Shown: piece by piece, positions 8,544 through 52,896 of the stretch
How the letters are laid out: every line of letters begins with the position of its first letter
How positions within the stretch are numbered: position 1 is the first letter of the stretch
NCBI GenBank assembly: GCA_963798465.1
Contig: CAWCTC010000001.1
Location: 4,315-68,314, forward strand
Length of the DNA stretch: 64,000 bases
Direction: 5' to 3'
From: an uncultured bacterium
GTDB lineage: Bacteria; Patescibacteriota; Minisyncoccia; Phycocordibacterales; GWA1-40-21
Notes under the pieces: generated by a model
Told to the model about the DNA's origin: nothing
The model's input: only the letters and a program-made list of their open reading frames with translations
The model's database searches: none
Position numbers and translations under genes: made by a program

Positions 8544-9204
8544 GTTTGAACCCAGCTCGCGTATCTTTTTAAATGGCGAACAGCCATACCCTTGGGAGCT
8601 TCTCCACCCCCAGGATAAGATGAGCCGACATCGAGGTGCCGAACTCCGCCGTCGATATGAACTCTTAGGCGGAACTAGCCTGTTATCCCTAGAGTAGCTT
8701 TTGTCCGATAATCTTCGGCCGCGTCTAATGCGGACGGTCGGTTCACTTTGCTCTGCTTTCGCATCTGCTCGACAAGTACGTCTCGCAGTCAAGCCAGCTT
8801 TTGCCAATACACTATCGGCACGGTTTCCATTCGCGCCTAGCTGACCTTAATAGACTCCTCCGTTACTTTTTAGGAGGATAGCGCCCCACTAAAACTACCC
8901 ACCAGATACTGTTTCTATGCGTTTTTTCCGTCAAAGGTTAGAATATATATTCAAAAAGAATGGTATTTCACTGACGGATCCATCTTCCCCGAAAGAAAAA
9001 CTTCAAATCCTCCCATCTACGCTACGCATTCAAAACATATACTCAATATCAAGTTGCAGTAAAGCTTCTAGGGTCTTTTCGTCTAACTGCAGGTAACCGG
9101 CATCTTCACCGGTATTGTATTTTCACCGAGCTGATCTTCGAGACAGTTCCCCACTCATTACACTATTCAAGCGCGTCTGAACTTACCAGACAAGGAATTT
9201 CGCT

Positions 9205-9429
9205 CAACCATTCCTCAAACGTTGGACTCTATCTTAATCCTCTAATAAATTAATTAAAATTTTTTCGTAGGATCCATGACGTTGGTCTCTTGTTAACCAT
9301 GTTGCGGACTAAGTGCAAATTACTTTGCATTAGGTAGCTACTTATTTTGTGTAATGCTAATTCATTTATCAAGGCCATAAATTTGCAACAGTCCTAGTCC
9401 TTCTGAAACTTTCTTGCGAAAGTTCCAGA
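9205..9429 (-). other. Intervening sequence in 23S domain IV (small group I-like intron)
   Basis: It interrupts ...ACGGTCCTAAGGT | AGCGAAATTCCTTGTC just 3' of helix 69, about E. coli 1925-1931. Length 225 nt, no ORF. Confidence 0.55.
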
Positions 9430-9464
<35 letters not shown>

Positions 9465-10273
9465 CAGGGCTTACAACAATCACCATTACCCTTGCGGATA
9501 ACAACGTCGTTAGTTGACCTTCTGGCATTGGTCAAGTGTCACCCCCTATACATCCTCTTACGAGTTCGCAGGGAGCTGTGTTTTTGATAAACAGTTGGCA
9601 GGGATACTTTAGCTGCGGCCCAAATAAATTTGGGCAAGCCTTATCCCGAAGTTACGGCTGCTTTTTTGCCGAGTTCCTTGAAGATCTATCACTCGTTCAC
9701 CTTACTCTACTCGAGCTGACCACCTGTGTCGGTTTACGGTACGGTCTTTACATATTTAAGCTTAGAGACTTTTCTCGGAAGCTTGCTTTGATAAATCCAC
9801 CACGGCGAACCGTAATATTTTCGCTGCGCTTTCGCTTATCATTAAAGAAAGAATTCCGGATTTACCTGGAACTCGCAATTACGCCACGAACGCAAATCCA
9901 ATAATGCGCTTATCATACTAAGCTTCGTCCTCCCATCGCAATATATAAAAGTCATGGAATATTAACCATGTGTCCATCGGGTGCGGCTTTCGCCATCCCC
10001 TTAGGCCCGACTAACCCTTCGCTGATTGTCATCGCGAAGGAAACCTTGGTTTTTCGGCGTGCGGGGTTCTCACCCGCATTGTGGTTACTTGTGCCAACAT
10101 TCTTACTTCAACACGCTCCACCATGGGTCACCCCTTCGCCTTCATCGCAGAGTTGAATACTCTCCTACCAATATAAATGTCCGAAGACATTCATAGTCCT
10201 CAGTTTCGGTACCATGTTTAACCCCGATTATCTGCGGCGCAAAATCTCTTAGTGAGTGAGCTGTTACGCTATC

Positions 10274-10305
<32 letters not shown>

Positions 10306-10810
10306 TCACTGTCTGAGAAAAATCACCACCTTAAGTGTACTTAACATAGATTTAGGGACCTTAAATAGAGATCCGGGCTGTTTCCCTTTTGACCATGGGG
10401 CTTAGCCCCCACAGTCTAACTGCCGAATAATTTACTTCATGGTATTCGGAGTTTGATAGGTCTTGCGATATTTCGACCTGTCAAGACCTTCCAGTGCTCT
10501 ACCCCCAGAAGGAACATGCAACGCTAGCCCAAAAGCTATTTCGGAGAGAACCAGCTATTACCAGGCTCGATTAGCTTTTCACTTCTTACCTCAAGTCATC
10601 CGAGAGTATTGCACGGCTCACCGGTTCGGACCTCCCCTCTGATTTCTCAAAGGTTCATCCTGCTCAAGATAAGCTCGCTCTGGCTTCGGGTCTGATGTAT
10701 AAAACAAACGCGCTATTCACACTCGGTTTCCCTATGGCTCCACCCGGTAAAGGGCTTAGCCTGCTTCATACATCAACTCGTTGGCTCATTCTTCAATAGG
10801 CACGCCGTGA

Positions 10811-10920
10811 CGGACAGCACATAACAAGTCAAAATTTATAAAGTCGAAATTCGAAATAAATGCTATTGCATATCCTTTAGACTTTATGGACTTTGGACTT
10901 TTCACTGGCTTGTGCTGCCC
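10811..10920 (-). other. 23S expansion hairpin (domain II variable helix)
   Basis: GGGCAGCACAAGCC...GGCTTGTGCTGTCCG-type long hairpin of ~110 nt, inserted between conserved GGAGTCGGAGC and TCACGGCGTGCCTATTGAAG. Confidence 0.5.
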
Positions 10921-10978
10921 GCTCCGACTCCTTGTAAGCATATGGTTTCAGGTCTATTTCACTGCCCTCACCGGGCTG

Positions 10979-11015
<37 letters not shown>

Positions 11016-11228
11016 ATCTCTAAAAATATTTAGCCTTACCGGTTAGTTCCGGCAGATTCCCTCAAGCTTTTCGTGTCCTGAGGTACTCAAGAATAATAAC
11101 GGAAAAGATATTTTATTTTCGCTTACGGGACTATTACCCACTAGGGTTCTGCTTCCCAGCAGATTCTGCTAACAAAATATTTTGTAACTTTTCTCATCTA
11201 TAAATAAATGACGTCATCATCTTACTAC

Positions 11229-11520
11229 ACCGATCACAAACTTTATGTACAAATTTTTCGTACTAAATAGTGGAGGCGAGTCATAGAATTTTTTTAGTGT
11301 TCTATGTTGTTACTCGCCCGTGGAGCTTGTTAGTCACAAGACAAAAAATCGGGGAAACCGAATGATCCTGTTAAAAATAACTAACTCACCTGGATATCCA
11401 ATTTCAGAGCTGCAGCCCTGAGTGCGGTTTCCAATAATTGAGAAACCCTATTGGGAATATCCTAATGCTCTCCACTATTTAATACAAAAAATAAATTTAT
11501 ACACAAAGTTTGTGATCGGT
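11229..11520 (-). other. ~290-nt structured insertion in 23S domain I
   Basis: Closed by a 16-bp stem (11229-11244 with 11505-11520, ACCGATCACAAACTTT/AAAGTTTGTGATCGGT), then an 11-bp stem (AAATAGTGGAG/CTCCACTATTT). Lies just 3' of AGTAGCGGCGAGCGAA in rRNA sense. No ORF. Confidence 0.5.
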
Positions 11521-12212
11521 TTGGGCTGTTTCCTTTTCGCTCGCCGCTACTAGGGAAATGTTGTTACTTGCGTAACATTGTTTTCTATTCCTCCAGGTAC
11601 TGAAATGTTTTACTTCCCTGGGTATGCATATTGCATCAAGTGCAATATAACCAATAAAATTGGCTGAGTTACCTCATTCGGAAATCTCTGGATCAAAGGT
11701 TGCTAAGCACCTCCCCAAAGCTTATCGCAGCTTAACTACGTCCTTCATCGCTTATTAGAGTCAAGGCATCCACCGTACGCCCTTAAATTTCCCATTAGGA
11801 AATTTAAAAACCACAATCTTTAAAAGTTTACGTTATAAACTTTAAATTTGTTTTAACCTGTTATATGGAATCAATTCCGTATAACAGTCTTATCAAAATT
11901 AATTGATAAAATTTTTTTAAATCATTTCAATCTCTCTCCAAGAAAAATTGAATGATTCACCTGCCTGCCTATAGCATCTATAAAAGACCCAATCCACTTA
12001 TCATGGAAAATTGGTAATGCTATGACAGAATGAAGATGTAAATTTTAATTATCATCCGCTAGGATAATCTCTGAAATCTTAATCTTATTTTTCAAGTTTC
12101 AATCTTTCTGATGAAAAAATCGCCTTTCGGCGACTAGTAGACAACATCAAAGATGCATCTATATAAGCCGCTTTAAAATTGATTTCTTGTATAACATATC
12201 TGTGTAAGAACG

Positions 12213-21656: not shown

Positions 21657-21700
21657 TTTGATTTTCAATCACGTCGCGCGACGTCCTTTAAGCGACAATC
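21657..21700 (-). promoter_or_regulatory. Two-hairpin leader motif, copy 4 (inside the r-protein operon)
   Basis: Coding strand: TGTCGC-TTAAAGGAC-GTCGCGCGAC-GTGATTGAAAATCAAA-ATG. Confidence 0.5.
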
Positions 21701-21710
21701 TCAAATTATT

Positions 21711-22244
21711 TTATGCGGTTTTCTTTCCTTCTTTTCTTCTGATGACTTCGCCTTCAAATCTTATTCCCTTTCCTTTATAAGGTTCAGGTTTTTTTATTGC
21801 TCTCAATCCTGAAGCAAAGCTGGTAATCAATTCTTTATCTATTCCCGTAATTACCACAATTCCTTTATCTAAAGACTACTTTTAATCCTGCAGGAATTTT
21901 TACTTTTACAGGATGAGAAAAACCTACTTTAAAGTGATGTCCGTAGGAGTAACGTCGGCTTTATATCCGACTCCTTCAACAATCATTCTCTTTGCCATAA
22001 CCTTTATTCACTCCTTCTACCATATTTTGAATATGAGAAGCATAAGTTCCCCAAAGCGCTTTGTTTTCCAAAGAATCTTTGACAGGTTTAAGCTGACTTT
22101 ATTTCCTTCAACAGAAATAACTATATTTTTTTTGAAAGTTCTTGAAAGTTCTCCGAGTGGACCTTTTACGCTAACAACATTGCCGTTTACTTTAATTTCG
22201 GTCTTTGCTGGTATTTCTATTCCTTTTTTTCCTAATCTTGACAT
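21711..22244 (-). CDS. rplF: 50S ribosomal protein L6 (several frame changes)
   Basis: N-terminus [37 protein letters not shown]. The C-terminus [25 protein letters not shown] is in another frame. The interior is readable only by frame-hopping. Confidence 0.8.
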
Positions 22245-22263
22245 TATATTAAAATAAACTTAA

Positions 22264-22649
22264 TTACCAGATTTTGAATAAAATTTCTCCGCCGACTTTC
22301 TGTTTGACTGCTTCTTTGTTTGAAAGAATTCCTGCTGGTGTAGAAATTATTGTCGCACCGAAACCATTTTTGAAAGGTTTGATATCTTCTGACTTTTATA
22401 TAAATTCTTCTTGAAGGTTTTGAAATTCTCTGGACATTGGTGATTTTCGGAGATTTGTCGGCTTTATAACTCAAAACAACGTCAATCATATTTCCATTTT
22501 TTGAAAAAGATTTTATATAACCCGTTCTTACAAGAACATCTGCTATGGCATACTTTTATTTTTGAGGTATAAGCTGAAACAGACTCCTTTCCTGCGAGGT
22601 TTCCATTCTTGATTCTTATTATGAAATTTCCAATAATGTCAGTTACCAT
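22264..22649 (-). CDS. rpsH: 30S ribosomal protein S8 (frame changes)
   Basis: N-terminus MVTDIIGNFIIRIKNGN. C-terminus GFGATIISTPAGILSNKEAVKQKVGGEILFKIW. The start overlaps the corrected rpsN stop (ATGGTAA). Confidence 0.75.
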
Positions 22650-22829
22650 GATGATTTTTTAATTCCGGGAATTTTTCCCTCGATTAGCAAACTCTCTAAA
22701 GCATATTCTGCAAAGATCAAAGTCTCTCATATATCCGTGTTTTCTTCCACAACGGAAACATCTCCTCACTACTCTTGAGGCAAATTTTATCGGTTTTTTT
22801 GATCTTGCAACTGTTGATTTCTTAGCCAT
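22643..22829 (-). CDS. rpsN: 30S ribosomal protein S14 type Z (zinc-binding); 1-nt indel near the 3' end
   Basis: MAKKSTVARSKKPIKFASRVVRRCFRCGRKHGYMRDFDLCRICFREFAN. Removing one A from GGGAAAAATTCCC restores the canonical ...GKIPGIKKSSW ending. Confidence 0.85.
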
Positions 22830-22873
22830 TTTGTAAAATGTAAAATAAAAAGCTTCAAAAAGCTTGTTGCAAT

Positions 22874-23049
22874 ATACTAGCAAGAAGCTCTTACAAAGTC
22901 AATGAAATAACGAGTGCATTCCCGACTATATTTCATTGACTCCGTCACTATTTCAGCAAGCACAAAATAATCACTAAAATTGGTGAAAGAAAACCTTCAT
23001 CTAAAACTGCACAAAAGCTCAATTTGATAAAAATAGTGTTGGGGGTCAA
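22874..23049 (-). promoter_or_regulatory. Promoter (TTGACT-N17-TAGTAT) plus conserved upstream structured module, copy P2, in front of rpsN
   Basis: -35 at 22897-22902 and -10 at 22874-22879 (minus strand). About 75 percent identical to the copy at 27143-27314. Confidence 0.55.
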
Positions 23050-23056
23050 TAAAAAA

Positions 23057-23080
23057 GGGCCGCACTTTTACATGCGGCCC
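23057..23080 (-). terminator. Rho-independent terminator
   Basis: GGGCCGCATGTAAAAGTGCGGCCC followed by TTTTTT on the minus strand. Confidence 0.7.
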
Positions 23081-23142
23081 GGGAAATCTTCATCGGATTC
23101 TTGTTCTTTGCCCGACTTTTAAGTGAGGCAAAATTACTCCGA

Positions 23143-23346
23143 TTAGTTTCCTTTTTTTTCTATTCTTTCTTTCATCTTGCTGAAATACTTCTCAGCAGAT
23201 TTTTTTCCCATCTCAAGGAGCATTAGATTTAACTCCTTCACTTCCTCAGAAGACAGACCTTTGGTAAAGTCCATGTTTTTCTTTATCTCATCCATCTTTT
23301 GTGAGACAGAGCGGTCCATGGACTCTTGCAGAATCCTTTCATACAT
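23143..23346 (-). CDS. Small Lys/Glu-rich helical hypothetical protein inserted between rplE and rpsN
   Basis: MYERILQESMDRSVSQKMDEIKKNMDFTKGLSSEEVKELNLMLLEMGKKSAEKYFSKMKERIEKKGN (67 aa), bracketed by two terminators. The longer track ORF (to 23505) overlaps rplE out of frame. Confidence 0.3.
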   Translation of the reverse strand: MYERILQESMDRSVSQKMDEIKKNMDFTKGLSSEEVKELNLMLLEMGKKSAEKYFSKMKERIEKKGN

Positions 23347-23366
23347 AACAGCATATAAACAAAAAA

Positions 23367-23384
23367 AACCGCTTTTCAGCGGTT
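23367..23384. terminator. Terminator after rplE
   Basis: AACCGCTTTTCAGCGGTT with A/T runs on both sides. Confidence 0.6.
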
Positions 23385-23398
23385 TTTTAAAATTTTTC

Positions 23399-23977
23399 TT
23401 ATTCTCTCTTTTTCTTTCCTTTTCTTCTTTTTTCTTCTTCACCTTTTTTGAATGGAAATCCGAGATATTCCAAGAAAGTTTTTGCTGAAATTTTATCTTT
23501 GACATTCGTCACTATTGTGACGGCGAGTCCGAAAACATCTTTCAATTCTTCATCGGATGATTCAGGAAAAACTGAATTTTCTTTCATACCGATAGTGAAA
23601 TTGCCCATATTATCTATAGCAGTGCACTGAAAGCCCTCTGAAATCTTTTGTTCTTGGAAGAGCAATGTAAACAAGCTTATTTAGAAAATCAAACATTCTT
23701 TGTCCGCGGAGAGTGACTTGGTATCCGACTGGATCTCCTTCTCTGACTTTGAAAGTTGCGACTGATTTCTTTGCAACTTTAAGCATGACTTTCTGTCCGG
23801 AAATTTTTGTCAAGCCTGTCATCAACAATTTTATTTTTGTTCTTATCTTTGAAAGAGCCGGTACCAGAACTCAAAACAACCTTCAAAACTTTTGGAGTTT
23901 GCATTTTGTTCTTTAAGCCCAAAGTTGTTCTTTAGTGCTTCAAAGGCTTTATTCTGTTTTTCTTTTAATGATATCAT
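23399..23977 (-). CDS. rplE: 50S ribosomal protein L5 (frame changes)
   Basis: Pieces: [35 protein letters not shown] / [49 protein letters not shown] / [20 protein letters not shown]...[12 protein letters not shown]...[10 protein letters not shown]. Confidence 0.8.
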
Positions 23978-23994
23978 CTCTTTTTTATTAAATA

Positions 23995-24293
23995 TTAAAT
24001 CTCTTTTCCTGTTTTTCTGTTGATTCTTACTCTATTTCTCGCCGATAGTTTTCTTTCCGACTCTCGCTCTCTTTCCGTTTTCATTTATCATGACATTTGA
24101 AGCGTGATAGGCATTGCTTTGTCCACAACCTGACCTTTTGCACCTGACTGTTTTGCTTTCTGGTGTTTCTTGCTGATATTTATTCCTTCTATCAAAACTT
24201 TATTTACTTTCGGATATGCGGCAACAACTTTCCGGTTTTGCCTTTGTCTTTTCCTGCTATAACTATTATATTGTCTCCTTTTTTAATTTTCAT
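23995..24293 (-). CDS. rplX: 50S ribosomal protein L24 (frame changes)
   Basis: MKIKKGDNIIVIAGKDKGKTGKV...YPKVNKVLIEGINISKKHQKAKQSGAKGQVVDKAMPI... Ends ...RVRINRKTGKEI in a different frame. Confidence 0.7.
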
Positions 24294-24328
24294 TTTTTTC
24301 TTTTGACTTTATGGACTTTCGACTAATT

Positions 24329-24700
24329 TTAGACTATTTCCGGCGCAAGGGAAGCGATTTTCTTGAAACCCAATTCTGCAATCTCTCTTGGAATCGGACC
24401 GAAAACTCTTCCGGCAATCGGATCCTGTTTTCCTTTTTCAATAATGACAACTGCATTCTCATCAAATCTTATATATGAACCGTCAGCTCTTCTGAATGGT
24501 TTTCTTTGTCTGACAACAACTCCGTAAAGAATATCTTTTTTCTTTGCCAATTTTCTCGGCTCAGCTTTCTGAACAGACAAGACGACAACTTCGCCGATAC
24601 TCGCCCATCTCTTTTTTGAACTTCCAAGCACTCTTAAAAATTCTGCCGATTTTGGCGCCTGAATTATCTGTTATATTTACTATTGATCTGTCTTGTATCA
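24329..24700 (-). CDS. rplN: 50S ribosomal protein L14 (one frame change near codon 23)
   Basis: MIQDRSIVNITDNSGAKIGRIFK then (shifted) VLGSSKKRWASIGEVVVLSVQKAEP...IRFDENAVVII...GRVFGPIPREI. Confidence 0.85.
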
Positions 24701-24719
24701 TTTTATTATTTAAAAATTA

Positions 24720-24953
24720 TTATTTCTTCAAAACTTTGAATCTTTTGTTTTTTGAAATCGGTCTTGTTTCGATTATTTCAATAATCTCTCCTTCTTTGCA
24801 TGTATTTCCTTCATCGTGAGCCATGATTTTATTCTGTTTCTTGATGAATTTTCCATACTTCGGATGTTTTTTGAAAGAATCGATGGAAACAACAACGGTA
24901 TCCTTCATTTTTGCTGAATACAACTTCCTTTCAATACTTTTCCATTATTCTTT
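24720..24953 (-). CDS. rpsQ: 30S ribosomal protein S17 (start uncertain)
   Basis: ...KLYSAKMKDTVVVSIDSFKKHPKYGKFIKKQNKIMAHDEGNTCKEGEIIEIIETRPISKNKRFKV. An ATG (MEK...) lies upstream in another frame. Confidence 0.8.
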
Positions 24954-24989
24954 TTTTACTGATTTTTTTTCCATATTTTTATATTATAA

Positions 24990-25180
24990 TTATGCTTTTT
25001 TCTCTTCCTTTAAGAATCGTAAGAATTCTGGGCAATTTCTTTTCTTAAATTTCTTCCGTTTTACATTTTTCATTTTGCTTCTTGAAGTTCCAAATCTGAA
25101 ATTGCTCAAAGCAGTTGCTTTTTCTGAAAGCTCTTTTTCAAGTTCGCCGTTGTTTTTTTTCTTAAATCTTTTAATTTCAT
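24990..25180 (-). CDS. rpmC: 50S ribosomal protein L29 (frame changes at A-runs)
   Basis: MKLKDLRKK / NNGELEKELSEKATALSNFRFGTSRSKMKNVKR... / ...ILKEEKKA. Confidence 0.65.
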
Positions 25181-25617
25181 ATATATTGTATATTAAAATC
25201 TTCGCTATAACTTTCGTTGTTGACTGGAAACTTCGTTCCTCCTTTTCTCAGCATTTCTCTTGCTGAAGGCACATCAACATCCGTCAACTTCAAAAAGAAC
25301 TCTTCCCGGCTTTACGATAGCGACATAACCTTGCAATTCTCCTTTTCCTTTTCCCATTTTAACTTCGGCTGGTTTCTGAGTATATGGATGATCTGGGAAA
25401 ATTCTTGTCCAAATTTTTCCGCTCTTTGCACATTGAGTGAGCAATAGCTTTTCTGGCGGCTTCAATCTGATTTGATTTAATTCTTCCCGCTCATATAGCT
25501 TTCAAACCAAAAGAACCGAAAGAAACTTTTGTTCCTCGTGTTTCTACGCCGACTCTTGTCAGGATTTTCCCTGAAAGTATGAGCTTTTCTGAATTTTACT
25601 TTTTTTGGCATTAACAT
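25177..25617 (-). CDS. rplP: 50S ribosomal protein L16 (multiple frame changes)
   Basis: [13 protein letters not shown]..., ...[10 protein letters not shown]..., ...[23 protein letters not shown]... The stop overlaps the rpmC start (ATGA). Confidence 0.75.
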
Positions 25618-25644
25618 ATTTGTTTATCTGGTTTCTTTAGTAAA

Positions 25645-26311
25645 TTATTTCTTTTCTTTATTGAAAATATCACCTTTGTAAATCCAGACTTTTGATACCG
25701 ATATCTCCGTATGTCATATGAGCTTTTTCTTGCGCATAATCAATATCTGCTCTGAAAGTCTGAAGCGGAACTCTTCCTTTTTTCATTTCTTCTGATCTTG
25801 CGATTTCTGCACCGCCGAGTCTTCCTCCGCAATAAACTCTGATTCCTTTGACATCGCGATTTGCCATGACTTTTTCAATAGTCTGTTTCATCACTCTTCT
25901 GAAAGGCAATCTTTTTTCCAAACCTTCGGCAATCATTTGGGCAACTATAGCTGCATTTGATTCTGGTGATTTGATTTCTTCAACATCCAATTTGAAATCT
26001 GCTGGAATTGAAAGTTTGTTCTTTGCGGCAAATTTCATTATATCTTTTCTCAAGTTTGACGGAACCTTCTCCGCTTCTGCCGATAACAACTCCGGGTCTT
26101 GAAGTTTTAATGATCAGTCTGAATGTCTTGTCGTTTCTTTCCATTTCAATGGAGCCGACGTATTGGCCTCGCATTTTCTTTTCGAGAAATTCTCTGAGCA
26201 TCATATCGGCTCTCAAAAATCTTTGTAATTTTTGCCAGTAGAAAACCATCGGGATTTCCAATCTCTGATGATTCCCAGTCTATGTGAATATGGATGTACT
26301 GTGTGTGACAT
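25645..26311 (-). CDS. rpsC: 30S ribosomal protein S3 (frame changes)
   Basis: MSHTVHPYSHRLGIIRDWKSRWF..., ...RPGVVIGRSGEG..., ...[57 protein letters not shown]. Confidence 0.8.
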
Positions 26312-26315
26312 AAAA

Positions 26316-26747
26316 TTATTTTTCTGATTTTTTAACTTTCTTTTCTGTTACGGCTTTTACAGCTTCTTTTTTATTTTCTACTTTAACTGCTTTTTTACCG
26401 GTTTAACAGGCATATTATCTATTGTATCCAAACTAACAAAAACATGGCTTGTTCTTTTGTTTATAGGATAAGCCATTCCTCTTGCTCTTGGCATTCTTCT
26501 TTTCAAAACTACTCCTTCATCTACTCTGAATTCTTTTACAAAAAGTTTGTCTGCTGGAATATTAAAATTGTGTCGATGCATTTGCAACCGCGGAATCAAT
26601 CAAATCTGAAAGTGGCTTTGCAGCTCTTTTAACCAAAAAGTTTAAAGTGTTTTTCGCATCCTCTACTTTCTTTCCTTTCACTAGATTGGCGACTAATCTT
26701 ACTTTTCTTGGTGACTGTCTATAATCATTTAATTTTGCGGTAATCAT
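26316..26747 (-). CDS. rplV: 50S ribosomal protein L22 (frame changes; 3' end uncertain)
   Basis: MITAKLNDYRQSPRKVRLVANLVKGKKVEDAKNTLNFL... / ...FVKEFRVDEGVVLKRRMPRARGMAYPINKRTSHVFVSL. Confidence 0.8.
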
Positions 26748-26750
26748 ATA

Positions 26751-27679: not shown

Positions 27680-29362
27680 TTAAAAATTGTAGAATATATG
27701 GATGAAAGATTTTATTCCACTGGCTGGAATATCAACCAATTTCGACCAAAAGCTCTTTGTCGATGAGGAATAGGAATTATTATCAGGAACTGAAAGACCT
27801 GAGTTCAAAACAGACGCAGTCTGATCAAGATTTTCTGCATTGGAATTTGCTGTCGATGTTGCTGACTCTTCCCTAGTCACGGCAATTTTATTATTCTGGT
27901 TATTTTTCAAAGCAAGAGAATCTTTGTAATTTTTTAGCAATTTTTCCGCATCTTCTACAGAAATATAATTACTTGATGAAGCAACGGCAAGATTACTTTC
28001 TGGCTGTGAGGTTGTTGCATTTTGCTGACCAAAATTATCAGAAGCTACTTCCCCATCAGTAGGATTATCAAGAAATATTCCGCTCGTCGAAGCGTCTATT
28101 CCCAAATCGTCTTTCGCCAAAATAATCTTATTTCCAGCACTTATGATGGTATCTTTCGGAAACAAAAAATCTTTTTGCATTCCCTTAATTTTCCAATTTC
28201 CAACATTTATTTCGGTTACTCCATTATTTTTAATTTCTATATCGCCATTTTCCGTATCTGAAATTGAAATGTCGGGAGAAACTACATTTACCGTAGTTCT
28301 GGAAATAGAATTATACTCTCCGCAAGTTCCGTTCAAAACGACTTGATATTCCCCGGGATATTTGTAGTTATGAGAAACATCCGTGCCTTCAGCATCAAAT
28401 CCATCGCCAAACGACCATGTAAATAAGGGAGAACATTGGCCATTTTGTTCAATATTATACTTGGCATCAAATTCAATCGGCGAGCCGACCGAAGCCAATC
28501 TTTCCCTTCCCGCCGAAATTTCAAAATCATTTTCATCATTATAATTGCTTATGTCTTCCGGATCCGAATGCGAAGAAACATAAACTATTTGTGTAGTTAT
28601 ATTTGTAATTGGCACTTGAGAAGTGGAAGAAGCAACCGATACTGTAGCACTACTACTTGCAGATCCTCCATCACAAGATATTGTAAAAATAGTATTAGCT
28701 GTCAAATTGTCTGAAGAAGCAGAACCAGATGTGCCGACTTGCCATGAAGAAGTGGCACCTTCAGATATTGCGCAAGAATTAACATTGCTTGAATTCCAGG
28801 AAATGGTTGTGGAAGAATTATAAGAAATAGACGAAGGTGCGGCAAAAATTGTGGCAGTTGGAGTTGTGCCTGAAGGAGGTGACGGAAGAGGTGACATTGA
28901 TGTTCCAATATTTATGATTTGGGTTGCTGAAATCCAGGACTGTCCTTGGGCCGAAACAGTTAAAGTAAAAGTCCCGTTTGTAGAATCCGAATAGCAAAAT
29001 CCTTTGTTTGCTTTGCTAGTTGACATTGTCAGCGTACCAGTAGCAGAAATTACAGCCCCGCATTCTCCGCCAATACTCGCGTTGTAAAAAATTCCAGTCG
29101 GAGAGGAAGATATAAATTGTAATTTTGTTGCTGAGCCAACCGCGGTTGAAGTACTGTCCGCATCTTGTGTCTGAACAGTCATAATTTGTGAAATCATACC
29201 AACTCCAATGTTTTGCGGGGCTGAAGTAAAAACTAATTTTGTTATATTACCATCTGCAAAAACTTTCTCCACAGAAATAAAATTAAAAAATATTACTGAT
29301 AAAAAAATCACAAACAAAAAGAACAAATTTTTATTTTTCATAATTATAAAATATATTAACAT
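27680..29362 (-). CDS. Secreted multidomain protein (Ig-like repeats, PKD domain, lamin-tail-like domain)
   Basis: Signal/TM segment KNKNLFFLFVIFLSVIFFNFISVEKVFA. PKD-like FTWSFGDGFDAEGTDVSHNYKYPGEYQVVLNG. LTD-like IEIKNNGVTEINVGNWKIKG...ISAGNKIILAKDD. Confidence 0.7.
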   Translation of the reverse strand: MLIYFIIMKNKNLFFLFVIFLSVIFFNFISVEKVFADGNITKLVFTSAPQNIGVGMISQIMTVQTQDADSTSTAVGSATKLQFISSSPTGIFYNASIGGECGAVISATGTLTMSTSKANKGFCYSDSTNGTFTLTVSAQGQSWISATQIINIGTSMSPLPSPPSGTTPTATIFAAPSSISYNSSTTISWNSSNVNSCAISEGATSSWQVGTSGSASSDNLTANTIFTISCDGGSASSSATVSVASSTSQVPITNITTQIVYVSSHSDPEDISNYNDENDFEISAGRERLASVGSPIEFDAKYNIEQNGQCSPLFTWSFGDGFDAEGTDVSHNYKYPGEYQVVLNGTCGEYNSISRTTVNVVSPDISISDTENGDIEIKNNGVTEINVGNWKIKGMQKDFLFPKDTIISAGNKIILAKDDLGIDASTSGIFLDNPTDGEVASDNFGQQNATTSQPESNLAVASSSNYISVEDAEKLLKNYKDSLALKNNQNNKIAVTREESATSTANSNAENLDQTASVLNSGLSVPDNNSYSSSTKSFWSKLVDIPASGIKSFIHIFYNF

Positions 29363-36049: not shown

Positions 36050-36153
36050 CCCCGTAAAGAATTTTATAAGAACAATTGTTGACTAAACTTAAATACTGAA
36101 ATTAACAAAAAATATCATGTCAAAATTAAAACGAAGTGAAAATTCACACAGGG
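36050..36153 (+). promoter_or_regulatory. Start-codon cassette, copy 2
   Basis: CCCCGTAAAGAATTTT ... ATG(36117) ... GAAAATTCACACAGGG. Confidence 0.6.
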
Positions 36154-38423
36154 CAAGAAAAACAAATTCAAAATCAGAATATAAAAACGATGTATTAAGC
36201 AATATAAAAAATGAAACTAAACAAGGAATATTGGCTGTCACTTTTTTAGTTTTGGGGATAATTTTTATTTTAGCTTCAATCAAGACCGGAAATTCTGGAC
36301 ATGAAGTCTATTACGCGGGACCAGTCGGAAAAGGAACTTATGATTTTCTTTCCACTCTTTTTGGTATCGGATATTTTCTTATTCCGCTATTTTTTCTCAT
36401 GTTCAGCATTTCTTTTTTTAAGGCAGAAGAACGAGAATTCAATAAGTTAAAAATCTTCGGCGGAATATTATTTTTTGTCTCCGGTCTTGGAATGATTGAT
36501 CTTGTTTCAAGACAATATTGGACTGCGCAAGGAGGCAAATTTGGCTGGCTCATTTCCACTCCTCTTTCAAGCATGTTCGGCTTCTATGCAAGTGTAATTA
36601 TTTTATTCGCACTTCTTATAATTTCTTGTCTCATTTTATTTGAAACGAGAATTACAGTTGAGTCACTTTTATTCTGGAGAAAAGAAAAAGAAACGAGGAC
36701 GAAGACGAAGATGAGGATATAAAGGTAATTGCCGAAAATTGAAGAGGAGGAAAAAAAGAGAAAGAAATTGAAAAAGAAGAAAAGAAAAGAAAAAGAAACA
36801 ACAAAAGGAGCGTTCATAAAAAAGAATGAGGAAGAGGAATCGGGAATAAAATTTAATCCGAAAATGGTGGGAAATACAAAATATGTTCCTCCCCCACTTT
36901 CTCTGCTTGAAGATGATAAAGGAAGAATGGTTTCCGGTGATATAAAAGCAAATGCAAATATTATAAAAAGAACTTTGCAAAATTTCGGCATTGATGTCGA
37001 AATGGATGAAGTTTCAATCGGACCATCAGTCACAAGATATGCACTCAAGCCAGCCGAGGGAGTGAAAATTTCAGAATTATCGGATTGCAAAATGATCTTT
37101 CACTTGCTCTTGCCGCGCACCCTCTCAGAATTGAAGCTCCGATTCCCGGCAAATCGCTTGTCGGAATAGAAATACCGAACTCCGTAAAATCAACAGTCGG
37201 TCTTGCTGCACTTATTGGTTCCGAAGAATTCCAAAAATCGGACAAGCCGCTTCTTGATAACACTTGGAAAAGGAATTTCCGGAAAATCACATTATGCAAA
37301 CTTGGCAAAAATGCCGCACGTTCTTGTTGCGGGAGCAACTGGTTCAGGAAAATCTGTGACAATTCACGCAATCATCACTTCCCTTCTTTATCGAAATTCG
37401 CCGGAAAATTTGAAATTTATAATGGTTGATCCAAAAAGAGTCGAGCTTACTCTATACAACAAAATTCCCCACCTCCTCACTCCGGTCATCACCGATGCAA
37501 AGAAAACTATTCTTGCTTTGAAATGGGCAACAAAAGAAATGGATCGCAGATATGATGTACTTGAATCCATGCGGTAAAAGATATAGATTCATATCACAAA
37601 AATATTTTTGCTCCAGCACTCAAGAAAAATTGAGGAACTGAAGAAAAAAGGAACTTATAATCCGGAAAAAAATGTTGTGCCGGAACCGATGCCATTATAT
37701 TGTCATAATAATAGACGAGCTCGCCGATATTATGATGGCTTATCCGCGAGAGCTTGAAGCCGGAATCGTTCGTCTTGGCTCAAATGAGCCGAGCTGTCGG
37801 TATCCACTTATACTTTCCACCCAAAGACCTTCCGTGAATGTCATTACCGGTATCATCAAAGGCAAATATTCCAGCAAGAATCGCCTTCAGGTGGTCTCCC
37901 AGATAGATTCAAGAACAATTTTGGATACCACAGGCGCGGAAAAACTTCTCGGTGCTGGAGATATGCTTTATATCGGCGGAGAAATGTCAAAGCCCGTGAG
38001 AATCCAGTCTGCATTCGTTTCTGAAAAAGAAGTTAAAGATGTTGTGAAATATTTGGTTGATTCATACAAGAGATGAGCTTATCGGCGGAGAAATTGATTT
38101 AGCAGAAGTCGCAAAAGGCGGAGATGAAAGCGGAGGCGTCGGAGTATTCAATAGTCTTGAAGATGACGATGGGATGAATTGTACGAGCAAGCAAAAGAAG
38201 AAGTTTTAAAAGCTGGAAAAGCATCAACTTCATATATACAGAGAAAACTTCGAGTCGGATATGCGCGAGCGGCAAGACTTGATTGATTTATTGGAACAGA
38301 AGAGGCGTTATAGGTCCTGGCGACGGTGCAAAAGCGAGAGAAGTCATCGGAAGTGGAGAAAATATTGAAAAATCTAAGATGCAGAAGAAGTGGATGAAAA
38401 TGCACAAAGAAGATCAGATATAG
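36117..38423 (+). CDS. ftsK: DNA translocase FtsK (multiple frame changes / in-frame stops)
   Basis: N-terminal TM domain (36117-36722). Then ...[10 protein letters not shown]...[61 protein letters not shown], Walker [40 protein letters not shown]. The gamma domain reads [26 protein letters not shown]. Read across at least 5 frames or fragments. Confidence 0.85.
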
Positions 38424-47557: not shown

Positions 47558-47564
47558 AAGAAAA

Positions 47565-47589
47565 AGAGCGGCACCTTCGGTGTCGCTCT
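47565..47589. terminator. Bidirectional terminator
   Basis: AGAGCGGCACCTTCGGTGTCGCTCT. Confidence 0.7.
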
Positions 47590-47599
47590 TTTTCTTCGC

Positions 47600-50500
47600 T
47601 TATTCTTCAATCAGCAATCTTCCTTTGAATCCATCAATATCCACAAGCTCGCCTTCTTCCATCTTCTCAAAAGTAATTTCTTTCAAACCTGTCGTCTTTG
47701 AAATTTCATTGCTGAACTTCTCAAAAATCTTTTTGCCTTTTTCATCCGTATCAATAATAAGTTCAACCATATCCGCGGGATTCAATTTTTTATTTTTGCG
47801 CATTTCCTGAATCGATCTGACGATATCGCGCATAATTCCCTCTTCTTTGAGTTCCTCTGTGATAGTTGTATCAAGCTCGACGTCATTCACATTCGATTCA
47901 TCGAAAATAATTTCTTTTACATTAATTTCATCCATTATCAGATTGAAATATTCCTTTTGATTTTTCAACTTCTGGCTTTTGACTTTAATTCCCATAAGTG
48001 GCTGTCTGACTTTGATTCCAACTTTCGCGCGAGCTTCAAGTCCGAGGGAAACAATTTGCCTTGTCTCTTTCATATTTTCCAATATTTCATTTTCGCTGGC
48101 GGAAAGTTCGCCGACAAGATCATCCGGCCAATTTTCCAAGTGCACGCTTTCCTTTTCCATTCCGCCGGTGATTTTCAAATATAAATCTTCAGCAAGAAAG
48201 GCATCGATGGCGCCAAGAGTTTTGAAAATTCGAGAATAACAGTTCTTGTTGTAAGCATAGCCGAATTTCTGTCTTCCACATCTTCAGATTTGAATCTGTC
48301 GCGTGATCTTCTCAAAAACCAAGTTGAAAGATCGTCGACAAAATCTCGCTATCGGCCTCGTTGCTCTATCGAGCTCATGGCTGTCTGTGGCTTTCGTAAT
48401 TTTAGTTGCTGTTTCCTTAAGTCTTGCAATAATCCATTTATCCAAAACATTATTCTGAATTTTTATAATTTTCTTTTTTAGTCAAATCAAGATCAAAACC
48501 ACCATACATTTCAAAGAATGAATAAACATTTTGCAATCTCATTATTACTTTTTTCAGAATTTCGTCCACTCCTTTATTTGAAAATTTCAAATCTTCTGCC
48601 TCTGTAGCAGAAGAAGAAAGAAGATAATATCTCATAGCGTCAGCACTATACGTATCCACAACTTCCATCGGGTCAGAATAATTTTTCAAATGTTTTGACA
48701 TCTTCTGTCCATCTTCAGCCAAAAGAATTCCATTTACAGCAACGCTTTTATAAGGAGCTTTGCCAAAAAGCGCGATTCCAAGAATAAGCAATGAATTGAA
48801 CCAGCCTCTAGTTTGATCAACTCCTTCTGCAATAAAATCTGCTGGGAAACCTTAATGTTTTCGTCGGATCAAATCTTATCTAAATTTTCAAAAGGATAAT
48901 GCATCTCTGCATATGGCATTGAACCAGACTCAAACCAGCAATCAAATACTTCTGGAATTCTTTTCATTTCTCCACCGCATTTACATCTCAAAGTAATTTC
49001 ATCTATGAATGGCCTGTGCAAATCGAGTTCGTAATTTCTGTTGTGAGGAATAGGTGCAAAAGGAAGTTCTTTGATTTCAGAATTTTCTATAAAAGCCTCG
49101 CCTTGTTTTCTTGTTTTCAAAGCCTGTGCATGATCAAAACCTGCAGCTCCGCAGAACATAAGCCAAATAGGAGTGTTGTGAGAAACAATTAGAATATTTT
49201 TTCCTTCATTTTTTGCATCTATTTCATACAAAAAATCGCACATTCTTTTTTTTGCGTCCTCGTATAGTTTCTCCGCCTTCAGGCGTTTTCCTAAATTTTT
49301 CTTCCCTGTTGCCAAAAAATGCCTGATATTCAGCATCTTTTTTGCCATCAAATTCTCCGCCAGATATTTCGTGCAGTCGTTCGGATCATAAATAATTTTA
49401 TCTTTCGGATAGCCGATATTTTCAGCAATAATTTCCGCTGTTTCTTTCGTTCTCATAAATGGAGAACAATAAATAATATCAATCTTTGTCTTTAAGATTT
49501 TCTGCAACTTTCACAGCCTGCTCTTTTCCTTTTTCCGTCAAATGATTTATAGTTTTCGGATTCGAACTCAAAATTCCCAAAACATTGCTCTCGGATTCTC
49601 CATGTCTGGCGATAAAAATTTTATTTTTGCTTTTTGTTTTTTCTTTTATCTCATCGATTGAACCGATAAATTCTTTTTCTTGGCAGTTTCATAGCGCATT
49701 TCCAAACTGGTATAGGTGCACCCCAAAATCTGCTTCTTGAAATTGCCCAGTCAGGAGCGCCTTCAAGCAATTTGCCGAATCTTCCTTCACCGATTTCTTT
49801 TGGAACCCATTTTATTTTTTTATTTGCTTCAACAAGCCTATCTTTGAATTTTGTCACTTCAACAAACCAAGAGCTTGCGGCATAATTCAAAAGCGGAGTG
49901 TCGCATCTGTAACAATGCGGGTATGAGTGGGCGAATTTTTCTTTTGCAAAAAGAGTTCCCTTTCCAGCCAGAAATTTGATCACTTCAATATCGGCAAGCT
50001 GAGGATTTTCTATCGGCTTCACTTTTTGTCCGGCAAAATCTTTCACTTCTTTTTTGAAAGTGCCGTCCATCGCGACATGCTGGATGAAAGGAAGATTTTT
50101 CTCTTTGCCGAGATTCATATCGTCTTCTCCGAATGCTGGCGCAATGTGAACAATTCCCGTTCCGTCTTCCGTCGTTACAAAAGCGGCATCATAAACTTTG
50201 AAACCGTTTTCAATATTTTTTAATTCATCATCAACATAATAATCAAAGACAGGTTTATAAGACATGCCGACTAAAGCATCGCCTTTCATTTTTTCTATGA
50301 TTTCATACGGCTCTTTTATTACGGACAATCTTGATTCAGCTAAAATAAATTTATCATTGCCAATTTTTATTTTTACATAATCAATATCTGGATTTACAGC
50401 AAGTGCAACATTTCCTGGAAGAGTCCAAGGCGTGGTCGTCCAAGCCAGGAAATATGTTCCTGGTTCATCTACAAGTTCAAATTTAACAGTCACTGAAATA

Positions 50501-51120
50501 TCTGTAATATCTTTGTAACCCTGGCCAACTTCAAAATTTGAAAGAGTTGTCCCACAGTGAGGGCAAAGATGCATGGATTTGAAACCTTCATAAATCAAAC
50601 CTTTTTTCTGAAGTTCTTTGAAAACCCACCAGACGGATTCTGTATAAGTCGGAGTCATCGTTCTGTAATCATTTTCCATATCGACAAAACGTCCGGTTCG
50701 TGGAATTATTTTTTTCCATTCATCTGCATATGTGAATATTTTTGTTCTTGCAATATCATTGAATTTTTCCAAACCAAAATCTTCAATATCTTTTTTTGAC
50801 TTCAATCCCATTTCTTTTTCAACAATATTTTCAATCGGAAGACCATGGGTATCCCAGCCCCATCTTCGATTGACATGCTTGCCTTTCATCGTCTGATATC
50901 TGCCCATATAATCTTTCATCGTTCCAGCAAGAATATGCCCGTAGTGTGGAAGTCCTGTGGCAAATGGCGGTCCATCATAAAATACGAATTCGCCATTTGG
51001 AGATGGTTTCTCTAAAGTTTTTTTGAAAATTTCTTTTTCCTGCCAGAATTGCAAGATTTCTTCTTCCCTTTCGGCGATTTTGCTTATAACTCTCGGTTTT
51101 TCTTTGTTATTTTCGCTCAT
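47600..51120 (-). CDS. ileS: Isoleucine--tRNA ligase (type 2) with embedded histidine-phosphatase domain; many frame changes
   Basis: [18 protein letters not shown] (HIGH), [41 protein letters not shown]...[28 protein letters not shown] (KMSKS), and a C-terminal anticodon-binding/Zn part. Fragments: 49651-51120, 48869-49507, 48450-48791, 47600-48178. Confidence 0.85.
49030..49635 (-). other. Histidine phosphatase (PGAM-like) domain inserted in-frame within ileS
   Basis: [16 protein letters not shown]...[10 protein letters not shown]...[18 protein letters not shown]...(alternate frame: [15 protein letters not shown]...KTPEGGE)...[13 protein letters not shown]. Flanked on both sides by IleRS sequence in the same ORF (48869-49507). 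Confidence 0.6.
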
Positions 51121-51213: not shown

Positions 51214-52896
51214 TTACATTTTTTCCGGTGCTTGTATACCAAGCAAGTTTAATCCATTTTTCAAAACAATAGAAAAAGCTTCGGTAAGCGCAACTTTATA
51301 TGGAGAATTTGAATCTGTTTTGTCGACAATTTTCCCTTGTCCATAAAAATTATTGAAAGCTGATGCGAGCTCAATAAGATAAGTTGCGATGTAATGTGGC
51401 GAATATTCCTCCCCTGCTCTTTCGACGACTTCAGGAAATCTGTAAAGAATTTTTTCCAAATTAGTTGCTTCATTTTCCTGAATTTTTTTCCAATCAACTT
51501 TTTTAATTTTTTCTTCTTTTGCTTTTCGCAAAATTGATTTCGCGCGAGCATACGAATATTGCAGATATGGTCCGGAATCGCCTTTTAGATTCAAGGCTTC
51601 ATCCCAACTGAAAATTATATCCTTTGAACTTTCTCTTTTTAAATCATTAAATTTTATTGCTCCAATACCGACAGCTTCAGCGGTGTCTTTATCAAAAACT
51701 TTTGCTTTTTCTACCGCTTCATCAAGAACTTCCTCCAGCCAAATACCATTTCCTTTTCTTGTACTCATTTTTCCTTCAGGAAAACGATAAAAACCATGTT
51801 TAACATGTATTCTGTCGTGACCATTTGAATAGCCGAGTAATTTTTCTGCTTCTATAACCTGCTGGAAATGCAAACTTTGTTCCATTCCAACTTCATTTAT
51901 AATGACAACATCTTTTCCATATTTTTCTTTTCTAAATTTGTCCGTCGCAAGATCACGAAGCGCATAAATAGTTGAACCGTCTTTTTTTAAAACCATCATC
52001 GGCGGATATTTATCATCTTTGAAAAAAATTAGATAAGCTCCCTCACTTTCCTTTGCAAGCTTAAGCTTATTTATATCTTTCAAAACTTCCTGCATTTTCT
52101 TTTCAAAATAACTTTCGCCGTAGGCGGTATCAAACTTTACGCCAAGCCTTTCATATATCTTTTCAAATTCTTTCAATGAAAGTTTAACGCAGATATTCCA
52201 AATATTTTTGGCTTCTTTATCGCCATTTTCAAGTTTTGTAAACCAATCTCGAGCTTCATTATCAAGTGCCAGATCTTTTTCAGCTTCGTCATGAAATTTT
52301 ACATACAAAGCTACCAAATCTTTTATAGGCTCGGCAGATTTCTGTATTTTTTCAATTGATGACCAATTTTTTATGGCAACAATCAGCTTGCCAAACTGAG
52401 TTCCCCAATCGCCTAAATGATTATCGCGAATCACTTCATATCCCGAAAAATCCAGAATATTTGCGATTGCATCGCCGATGACAGTGGAGCGAAGATGTCC
52501 GATTGTAAAAGGTTTCGCAATATTTGGCGAAGAATATTCAACAATTACTTTCTTCCCTTTTCCAATTTTACTTCTGCCAAATTCTTTTTCTTCTTTCAAT
52601 ATTTTTCTGTTTTCATCAACAAAAAATTCTGGGGATAAATAAAAATTGATAAAACCAGGTCCGGCGACTTCAACTTTTGAAATTTCTTTTGGTTTTCTTT
52701 CGTTTATTTCTGCGACAATCTTTTCTGCAAGTTCTCGGGGATTTTTAGCGACTTGTTTTGCAAGTATCATTGCAACATTGCACGAATAATCTCCATGAGT
52801 TAATTCCTCGGGATGTTCTAGATTTATTTTTTCGGCTTTAATATCAAGTTCAGAAAGTGCCTGCTTTATTGATTTTTCCAATATGTTTCGAATCAT
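51214..52896 (-). CDS. argS: Arginine--tRNA ligase
   Basis: 560 aa. EYSSPNIAKPFTIGHLRS (HIGH-like), ...DWGTQFG..., MSTRKG (KMSKS equivalent), DALR anticodon-binding C-terminus. Confidence 0.92.
   Translation of the reverse strand: MIRNILEKSIKQALSELDIKAEKINLEHPEELTHGDYSCNVAMILAKQVAKNPRELAEKIVAEINERKPKEISKVEVAGPGFINFYLSPEFFVDENRKILKEEKEFGRSKIGKGKKVIVEYSSPNIAKPFTIGHLRSTVIGDAIANILDFSGYEVIRDNHLGDWGTQFGKLIVAIKNWSSIEKIQKSAEPIKDLVALYVKFHDEAEKDLALDNEARDWFTKLENGDKEAKNIWNICVKLSLKEFEKIYERLGVKFDTAYGESYFEKKMQEVLKDINKLKLAKESEGAYLIFFKDDKYPPMMVLKKDGSTIYALRDLATDKFRKEKYGKDVVIINEVGMEQSLHFQQVIEAEKLLGYSNGHDRIHVKHGFYRFPEGKMSTRKGNGIWLEEVLDEAVEKAKVFDKDTAEAVGIGAIKFNDLKRESSKDIIFSWDEALNLKGDSGPYLQYSYARAKSILRKAKEEKIKKVDWKKIQENEATNLEKILYRFPEVVERAGEEYSPHYIATYLIELASAFNNFYGQGKIVDKTDSNSPYKVALTEAFSIVLKNGLNLLGIQAPEKM

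Follow-up and report, generated by a model that had tools for sequence, protein, structure and literature searches.

Few enzymes are as strongly conserved or as well studied as the aminoacyl-tRNA synthetases, and to our knowledge extra catalytic domains inside the catalytic body of a synthetase, rather than at its ends, are rare in bacteria. The stretch of DNA analysed here (the window; 64,000 nucleotides of contig CAWCTC010000001.1, from an uncultured bacterium) carries on its minus strand an ileS gene for isoleucyl-tRNA synthetase (IleRS) with the sequence of a histidine phosphatase of the phosphoglycerate mutase-like (PGAM) family in its middle. As found, this gene is a string of open reading frames (ORFs) in differing frames. 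The locus raises the question of whether the phosphatase is truly part of the synthetase and, if so, what it might do there. An earlier note, made from the letters of the window, had proposed that the phosphatase is fused in-frame inside the catalytic body of IleRS and is not a neighbouring gene.

The fused gene and its product

In five independent assemblies of close relatives, whose ArgRS is near-identical to that of the window (JGI 3300038464, 3300037095 and 3300036906; ENA ERZ27254211; Logan SRR35911584), argS is followed by one intact ileS of 1169 amino acids, with its domains in the order found for the window. Among the GTDB species representatives scanned, the long form occurs at about 24 loci, 11 of them with uninterrupted ORFs of 1148-1236 amino acids in which the RHG motif of the phosphatase falls at residues ~510-545. 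In the intact orthologues, neither junction has a stop or start codon that would separate the two parts, and too many independent assemblies show the architecture for it to be an assembly chimera, the other outcome that would have undone the proposal. The fusion is in-frame and intact in the close relatives and in many Patescibacteria, as the earlier note had proposed, and we regard it as almost certain that this is a real nested domain in a functional gene.

In the window, ileS runs from 51120 to 47603 on the minus strand, with its stop codon at 47602-47600. Joining the frames after a three-frame reading of that strand and nine frame corrections yields a protein of 1169 amino acids, and no nonsense codons are left after the correction. 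Its Pfam domains follow one another as tRNA-synt_1, His_Phos_1, tRNA-synt_1, Anticodon_1 and DUF5915. The tRNA-synt_1 match (E=3.8e-134) comes in two stretches, and between them His_Phos_1 (PF00300) scores 123.5 bits against a gathering threshold of 21.7 (E=1.1e-35; residues 501-667, profile positions 1-168 of 194), which excludes a chance resemblance. All the peptides that the earlier note had quoted were located on the minus strand, where it had placed them. The synthetase features are the following.

47600-51120, minus strand: ileS, type-2 IleRS with nested phosphatase domain (three-frame reading, reconstruction, Pfam, TIGR00392, AlphaFold)
49690-51120, minus strand: intact N-terminal 477 residues, within ORF 49651-51120
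50949-50935, minus strand: HIGH motif as PHYGH, first Rossmann half
50565-50554 and 49914-49903, minus strand: zinc motifs of the CP core, CPHC and CYRC
50442-50410 and 50163-50119, minus strand: CP1 editing motifs
49752-49702, minus strand: 17-residue strand, which lies, like CP2, within the intact N-terminal part
47603-48907, minus strand: remaining IleRS, with a 17-residue motif (48848-48798), KMSKH (48704-48690), the anticodon-binding domain and DUF5915 (Pfam)
48196-47603, minus strand: last 198 IleRS residues, intact

On the ileS model TIGR00392, the intact orthologue of the close relative L082 scores 871.6 bits, above the equivalog cut-off of 621.4, and it falls below the valS, leuS and metG cut-offs of NCBIfam; the N-terminal ORF of the window by itself scores 552 bits (residues 14-476). 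Both class I motifs were found, and K804, S806 and K807 are nearly invariant in the IleRS alignment A3. The corrected window protein also has both CP1 editing motifs (the Thr-rich motif and GTGxVHxAP), which we take to be those defining the CP1 editing site. With every signature and editing motif in place, and with an orthologue that scores above the ileS cut-off, we take the synthetase to work normally; the IleRS part would charge tRNA-Ile as usual.

AlphaFold models the frame-corrected protein with confidence over its full length, residues 500-690 included (mean predicted local distance difference test, pLDDT, 90.1; predicted template modelling score, pTM, 0.83), and the protein is predicted to fold as an IleRS with a PGAM lobe. 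The best matches of this model in the PDB, by Foldseek, are type-2 IleRS structures, namely 1ile from Thermus thermophilus (target template modelling score, TM, 0.91), 8c8v, the IleRS2 of Priestia megaterium (0.83), and the yeast enzyme 8wnd (0.80), at 31-34% identity. With these the protein shares the type-2 fold, including the anticodon-binding and C-terminal domains (AlphaFold, Foldseek, Pfam), as well as HIGH, KMSKS, the CP1 editing motifs and DUF5915, and its CP3 zinc motif matches that of T. thermophilus. Unlike them it carries an insert of ~190 residues without a counterpart; the query-normalised TM is only ~0.74 because the PGAM lobe has nothing to align with.

The site of insertion

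The earlier note had set ~190 residues in the window against a normal separation of 15-25 between the flanking IleRS segments. In an alignment of 70 full-length IleRS, drawn from GTDB species representatives together with the window and one close relative, PIPVWKC and DLHRPF are 22-48 residues apart, mostly 26-27, in the 49 sequences without an insert, and 210-239 apart in the 21 sequences with one; there are no intermediate values, and the window stands at 223. The insert is thus ~195 residues long, which bears out its unusual length. The parts of the site are the following.

49696, minus strand: end of PIPVWKC, with a 17-residue peptide after it at 49688-49638
49638-49701, minus strand: first CP3 zinc-knuckle half (KC..NC) with an 11-residue lead-in; frame broken by a 4-nt insertion (orthologue comparison)
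49025-49057, minus strand: conserved return linker of 11 residues, consensus P.PHN..YEL, from the last PGAM strand to DLHRPFID (alignments A1 and A3)
48908-49024, minus strand: second CP3 half, where the chain returns to the Rossmann fold, with DLHRPFID (49024-49001), CKCGG (48985-48971) and an 18-residue motif (48961-48908)

Four cysteines (KC..NC and CKCGG) flank the insert in the window protein, two on either side, and the domain is therefore nested in the zinc-knuckle hairpin. After the insert, H700, P702, D705, R719, D725 and W727 are invariant in alignment A3. CP3 is the link from CP2 to the second Rossmann half, carries the zinc-binding motif in T. thermophilus IleRS, and differs in topology among solved IleRS structures (PMC7191050). 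The insertion site is this structurally variable CP3 subdomain, inside its zinc knuckle, which agrees with the earlier suggestion of a domain captured in a surface loop.

The nested phosphatase domain

The nested domain itself has the following features.

49058-49622, minus strand: PGAM-like His_Phos_1 domain, residues ~500-686, beginning KIFIARHG (Pfam, AlphaFold, Foldseek)
49607-49599, 49453-49451, 49370-49368 and 49180-49178, minus strand: catalytic residues Arg505-His506-Gly507, Arg556, Glu583 and His646, respectively, to which Asn512 and Glu616 are added
49541-49515, minus strand: LTEKGKEQA
49465-49436 and 49195-49166, minus strand: two further 10-residue phosphatase peptides

AlphaFold gives this domain a pLDDT of 90-98. 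Foldseek placed the domain model next to PspA (4ij6), Rv2419c (4pz9), TIGAR, CobC and PhoE in the PDB (probability 1.0, target TM 0.70-0.78), and a sequence search of the PDB with the phosphatase domain returned the same set of small phosphatases (E 2e-14 to 4e-8). With PspA (4ij5/4ij6), PhoE/YhfR (1h2e, 1ebb), CobC (6nru, 6e4b) and Rv2419c, the domain shares its fold, its size of ~190-210 residues and its catalytic residues; unlike the domain these enzymes are free-standing, and the identity is only 20-28%. PspA is a phosphoserine phosphatase, CobC an alpha-ribazole phosphatase and Rv2419c a glucosyl-3-phosphoglycerate phosphatase. The nearest characterised relatives of the nested domain are thus small phosphatases and not mutases. 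The acid motif of the domain is ExxxGxxxG(K), which we take to be the phosphatase type, ERHYG presumably being that of the cofactor-dependent mutases.

The catalytic core (R505, H506, R556, E583 and H646) is complete in the window copy. Among 147 domains nested in IleRS, the two arginines and the two histidines are each present in all 147, and the acid is Glu in 142 and Asp in 4. Likewise, a word-indexed protein search found dozens of Patescibacteria IleRS fragments in which PF00133 and PF00300 cover both flanks and the insert, and R, H, N, R and H are invariant in 20 of these that were aligned. Between the window and L082, the PGAM domain differs by 27 synonymous and 14 non-synonymous codons. 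It seems likely from this conservation that the nested domain is a catalytically active phosphatase.

As to what it might act on, a true phosphoglycerate mutase is unsupported: dPGM_arch, the best NCBIfam match, reaches 101.6 against a cut-off of 225, pgm_1 reaches 28.9 against 81.7, and the other GpmA models are far below. The second-best match, RNase H/acid phosphatase, has 78 bits against a cut-off of 326, and the models of named small phosphatases were also not reached (PspA NF045917, 77.3 against 350; CobC TIGR03162, 74.8 against 162.9; SixA TIGR00249, 40.5 against 74.5; GpmB NF002901, 47.1 against 261). Because the domain reaches no NCBIfam equivalog cut-off, substrate specificity cannot be transferred to it from any of these enzymes. 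We conclude that the domain has the make-up of a catalytically competent phosphomonoesterase whose specificity is not assignable from profiles. A nucleic-acid-binding role was also considered from surface charge, and the basic bias that it calls for was not found: the mean net charge of the nested domains is about -1, and they are not more basic than their free homologues. No other His_Phos_1 gene lies within the 64-kb window.

Distribution and copies of the domain

The earlier note had proposed a search for the same insertion in the IleRS of Candidate Phyla Radiation (CPR) bacteria, and the insertion proved to be widespread. At least 21 GTDB species of Patescibacteria carry a long-form IleRS, and the lineages named in the records are Paceibacteria, Minisyncoccia, Yanofskybacteria, Spechtbacterales, Peregrinibacteria and Peribacteria. 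A HMMER profile of the domain alone was run against 1.84 billion cluster representatives and gave 1463 matches at E<=1e-30, of which the best 150 (50%-identity clusters) were classified by architecture. These best 150 comprise 88 IleRS, 4 valyl-tRNA synthetases (ValRS) and 58 free-standing proteins (34 single and 24 tandem). Twelve of the 88 IleRS have two PGAM domains, and 25 are single ORFs of at least 1100 amino acids. An impression from the word search that IleRS of this kind is generally split (the lengths found were at most ~570 amino acids) was rejected, as that search had missed the 1169-residue orthologue and the exhaustive search gave 25 full-length sequences. In a rough neighbour-joining tree, the IleRS with an insert fall into two IleRS clades, each with one insert-free member nested in it, which suggests that the insertion may be old, with occasional loss or transfer.

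Some lineages carry more than one copy. Three IleRS of Peribacteria (L023, L025 and L029; ~1450-1490 amino acids) have two PGAM domains in CP3, the second taking the place of the second zinc-knuckle half; this second insertion site lies between DLHRP.ID and RIPEV.D. In the IleRS fragment P0094 (528 amino acids), a PGAM domain is followed at the second site by a YdeN-like Ser_hydrolase domain, which again replaces the second zinc-knuckle half. Elsewhere (P0049, P0150, P0153, P0156 and P0170), the second PGAM domain stands between the catalytic and the anticodon-binding domains.

The ValRS proteins P0173, P0148, P0181 and P0269 carry one to four PGAM-type domains. In P0173 (1538 amino acids, with the Val_tRNA-synt_C arm), P0148 and P0181, such domains are found after the CP core and at the site equivalent to CP3, which lies between WCISRQIWWGHRIPVW and DTLDTWFSS; P0148 has four Pfam PGAM stretches. 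One copy in P0181 is without the second catalytic His (VTNRS), and degenerate copies of this sort are few and confined to the multi-copy ValRS. By nearest-neighbour comparison, the PGAM domains at the secondary sites and half of those in ValRS are closest to the CP3 copies of IleRS, a pattern that is consistent with duplication and spread from the CP3 site of IleRS.

In L089 and L093, close homologues that stand free occur in arrays, in which a tandem double of ~404-410 amino acids is followed by a third PGAM ORF of 109 amino acids in L089 and 216 in L093.

L089, 2081-4890: array of free homologues
L093, 5001-6862: array of free homologues

The L089 array lies directly upstream of a gene for a class Ic (tRNA-synt_1b) synthetase. 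No synthetase gene was found near the free homologues in L093 and L096, and these neighbourhoods give no consistent signal.

Comparison with described systems

One earlier mention of an interrupted IleRS was found. In the CPR bacterium SR1, IleRS is interrupted by a Nudix domain and two PGAM domains, as stated in one sentence by Kantor et al. (2013, mBio 4:e00708-13, PMC3812714). That sentence comes without insertion sites, distribution, catalytic-residue analysis or function, and a literature search for IleRS with histidine phosphatase, His_Phos_1 or GNAT returned nothing relevant apart from it. The SR1 enzyme, compared here by its published description, is like that of the window in being a CPR IleRS interrupted in-frame by one or more PGAM-family domains. 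It is unlike it in having three inserts, Nudix included, where the window has a single PGAM domain in CP3, and in its lineage, SR1 as against the Paceibacteria-like lineage of the window. The window gene, an ileS interrupted in-frame in a CPR genome, belongs with the PGAM-interrupted CPR IleRS as a single-PGAM CP3 form. Its CPR affiliation is taken from the lineages named for its relatives (Paceibacteria, Minisyncoccia, Yanofskybacteria and Peribacteria) and from a 4045-nt 23S rRNA with insertions. The earlier note had not recognised this architecture as described; it has been noticed, in that one sentence, but not analysed before.

Two other fusions offer partial parallels. The NCBIfam family NF040702 (ileS_w_GNAT) is a curated precedent for an unrelated enzyme domain inside IleRS, the guest there being an N-acetyltransferase. 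The L082 protein is not a member (292 against a cut-off of 1999), and a paper describing NF040702 was not found. The RNase H/acid phosphatase proteins (NF005567, PRK07238, Rv2228c type) likewise join a CobC/PGAM-type phosphatase to a nucleic-acid enzyme. Unlike the present case, that fusion is end-to-end and not nested, it has another partner, and its cut-off was not reached.

Proposed function

Our preferred reading, which we hold to be probable though by no means secure, is that the protein is a bifunctional enzyme, a type-2 IleRS with a complete phosphatase nested in CP3, whose activity is autonomous and for which the synthetase is a permissive scaffold. The nested domain would work as a phosphomonoesterase of the PhoE/PspA/CobC type. 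His506 would attack the terminal phosphate to give a phospho-histidine intermediate, Arg505, Arg556 and His646 would hold the phosphate, and Glu583 would be the general acid/base. We would expect the substrate to be small, a phosphorylated metabolite or a nucleotide, and not tRNA, and CP3 would serve as a permissive scaffold that is constitutively expressed. Autonomous activity is favoured because CP3 is peripheral and variable, because it accepts other hydrolases, and because the nested domains are not basic. On the narrower point of whether the domain is mechanistically part of Ile-tRNA synthesis, we lean only slightly towards the view that it is not.

Several observations weigh against this reading. 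In the best 150 clusters the domain is fused to nothing but IleRS and ValRS, the closest paralogue of IleRS, and these enzymes carry one to four copies at CP2-like, CP3 and post-catalytic sites. The SR1 IleRS also bears a Nudix hydrolase (PMC3812714). Such specificity for the partner, together with hydrolases of the nucleotide type, hints at a functional link to aminoacylation chemistry or its by-products, and not at a neutral scaffold. Moreover, the nested domain reaches no equivalog cut-off from which a substrate could be inferred.

These observations are the basis of the main alternative, which we consider possible but doubtful: the nested phosphatase would give the synthetase a third active site that is functionally coupled to it. 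Its substrate would be either something that aminoacylation or editing yields, as product or by-product (AMP, other nucleotides, pyrophosphate, or breakdown products of diadenosine tetraphosphate, Ap4A), or a phosphorylated tRNA 3' end, and the domain would have been kept in IleRS and ValRS since these editing enzymes make that substrate. The restriction of the fusions in the best 150 clusters to 88 IleRS and 4 ValRS, in which the domain has repeatedly been duplicated to other sites, is what such coupling would lead one to expect, as is the strict conservation of the catalytic residues. The serine hydrolase beside PGAM in one IleRS and the free tandem homologue directly upstream of a class Ic synthetase gene point the same way, and so does the SR1 IleRS, which unites two PGAM domains with Nudix, a nucleotide-pyrophosphate hydrolase (PMC3812714). 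However, the ValRS copies are most like the IleRS CP3 copies, and the flanking motifs that the two paralogues share would allow recombination between them without a functional reason. The other free homologues are not beside synthetase genes, and the nested domains lack a basic character. We also know of no histidine-phosphatase family members that act on tRNA ends. The domain sits, moreover, in a CP3 that is peripheral and variable in solved IleRS (PMC7191050). In a broader form of the same idea, which is equally tentative, the PGAM-type domains of IleRS and ValRS across Patescibacteria, whether their site is CP2-like, CP3 or post-catalytic, would make up a hitherto unrecognised extra catalytic module of the editing-type class Ia synthetases, processing a phosphorylated by-product or the tRNA 3' end, and joined in some lineages by Nudix or serine-hydrolase domains. 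No Nudix box is present in any of the sequences collected here.

It is improbable that the role of the domain is mainly non-catalytic, be it in dimerisation of IleRS or in allosteric sensing of a phosphorylated metabolite. Many small PGAM-type phosphatases are dimers, and the free relatives, as tandem doubles with a third copy, and the synthetases with 2-4 copies, as possible internal pseudo-dimers, would suit such a role; the pTM of the full-length model likewise suggests a defined packing of the lobe against the core. Nevertheless, the near-absolute conservation of catalytic residues in the 147 nested domains exceeds what binding or dimerisation needs.

A phosphatase coupled to aminoacylation would add a new functional module to the class Ia synthetases, and a third active site, if true, would be tied to translation fidelity or nucleotide economy in organisms of minimal metabolism. 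An uncoupled one would show how reduced genomes fit a separate enzyme into a permissive loop of a protein that is essential and constitutively expressed. In either case the hypothesis is directly testable, as the catalytic residues and domain boundaries are known and there is an intact sequence of 1169 residues. A phosphatase with intact catalytic residues lies in CP3 of IleRS across scores of Patescibacteria lineages, against one sentence in the literature, and the annotation of metagenome-assembled genomes routinely fragments genes of this kind or calls them 'partial' or 'class I tRNA ligase family protein'. The present analysis locates the insertion site, shows how broadly the architecture is distributed and how well its catalytic core is conserved, describes the multi-copy and ValRS variants, and offers an explanation of the frame slips.

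Frame slips in the window copy

The slips that break the window copy were located by a MAFFT alignment of its DNA with L082. There are nine frame-breaking indels in ileS, all within 49692-48200, and their positions depend on the alignment to within a few nucleotides.

49692-49689, minus strand: insertion of ATGA
49487, minus strand: insertion of A
49380-49379, minus strand: insertion of AC
49266, minus strand: insertion of T
48875, minus strand: insertion of G
48863, minus strand: insertion of C
48452, minus strand: insertion of T
48348, minus strand: insertion of C
~48200, minus strand: deletion of 1 nt

Eight of the nine add nucleotides (4 nt once, 2 nt once and 1 nt six times), and long homopolymers are involved at none of the sites. 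Two statements of the earlier note are affected by them. It had taken the N-terminal junction to be continuous but for single-nucleotide slips; in fact the 4-nt insertion at 49692-49689 breaks the first zinc-knuckle half. It had also placed the C-terminal junction in a single uninterrupted ORF, 48869-49507. This ORF is indeed open, but by way of the compensating +2 (49380-49379) and +1 (49266) indels, so that ~38 codons (NDCTKYL...KAEK) are read in the wrong frame; the true reading of this segment carries the catalytic Glu.

The earlier note spoke of slips all over this gene; they are not peculiar to ileS. The genes for the ribosomal proteins L22, S3, L16, L14, L5, S8 and L6 are each split into at least two ORFs (window 21700-26750, minus strand). 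Aligned to the relative L087, in which this operon is wholly intact, the window has ~35 small indels at 21.8-26.75 kb, mostly 1-nt insertions. Similarly, ftsK is split into three ORFs (36117-37577, plus strand). Because essential single-copy ribosomal genes with the same kind of indel cannot all be pseudogenes, we read the ileS slips as artefacts, most likely sequencing or assembly errors, with a consensus or polishing that is poor in patches. Two other explanations were set aside. Programmed frameshifting or transcriptional slippage was rejected, as the sites are not slippery runs and the close relatives need no shift. Misassembly through a duplicated region was considered for two 560-residue ORFs (27680-29362 and 51214-52896), which proved to be unrelated.

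In comparison with its relatives, ileS is a divergence island, with 8-24% nucleotide difference from L082-L086 where argS, recO and the other flanks differ by 0-5%, and this suggests possible recombination or strain mosaicism. The centre of the PGAM domain (49250-49499) is only 4.8% different from the nearest relatives. Over the gene, the DNA of the relatives is ~86% identical to that of the window, and the corrected protein is 88% identical to the L082 orthologue. The differences from L082 are mostly at third codon positions, also inside the broken patch. In the relatives, a 131-residue ORF without a Pfam match lies between ileS and recO (L082:11339-11734), which is missing from the window (~47560-47600).

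The divergence island, and the packing of nine indels into 1.5 kb between intact neighbours, argS and recO, might be expected if the window copy were a genuine decaying pseudogene, with a second, functional ileS elsewhere in the genome. This is very unlikely, since insertion-biased indels of the same kind occur in at least seven ribosomal protein genes and ftsK of the window, and the corrected gene has no nonsense codons, a predominance of third-position substitutions and all its catalytic and signature motifs intact.

In a more distant relative (L001, a 57-kb Paceibacterota contig, JGI 3300037810), the ileS gene is called in two ORFs, of 642 and 541 amino acids, that overlap; the break, at 4980-5005 inside the PGAM domain, is a run of A5 where A6 would keep the frame, and is probably a sequencing error. 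That a separate phosphatase gene splits ileS, or that the arrangement is an assembly chimera or an intein-like mobile insertion, has practically no chance of being right: the window gene does lose its frame close to either end of the insert, and the L001 gene is called in two pieces, but many independent assemblies have the gene as one intact ORF, free of internal stop or start signals, the L001 break is not at a junction, and the insert is a complete PGAM fold, not HINT, in which the residue after the conserved PHN is R, G, S, E, D or K, no Cys/Ser/Thr nucleophile being kept there.

Other features of the window

No tRNA genes were found in the whole 64-kb window. A 23S rRNA match lies on the minus strand at 7755-11799 and is 4045 nt long against a model of 2925 positions, with ~1.1 kb of insertions. 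Within this gene are two ORFs, 8442-8807 and 9536-9904, without a Pfam match. The 16S rRNA gene is not adjacent to the 23S gene, and a 5S rRNA lies at 7544-7653. Insertions in 23S rRNA are common in CPR bacteria.

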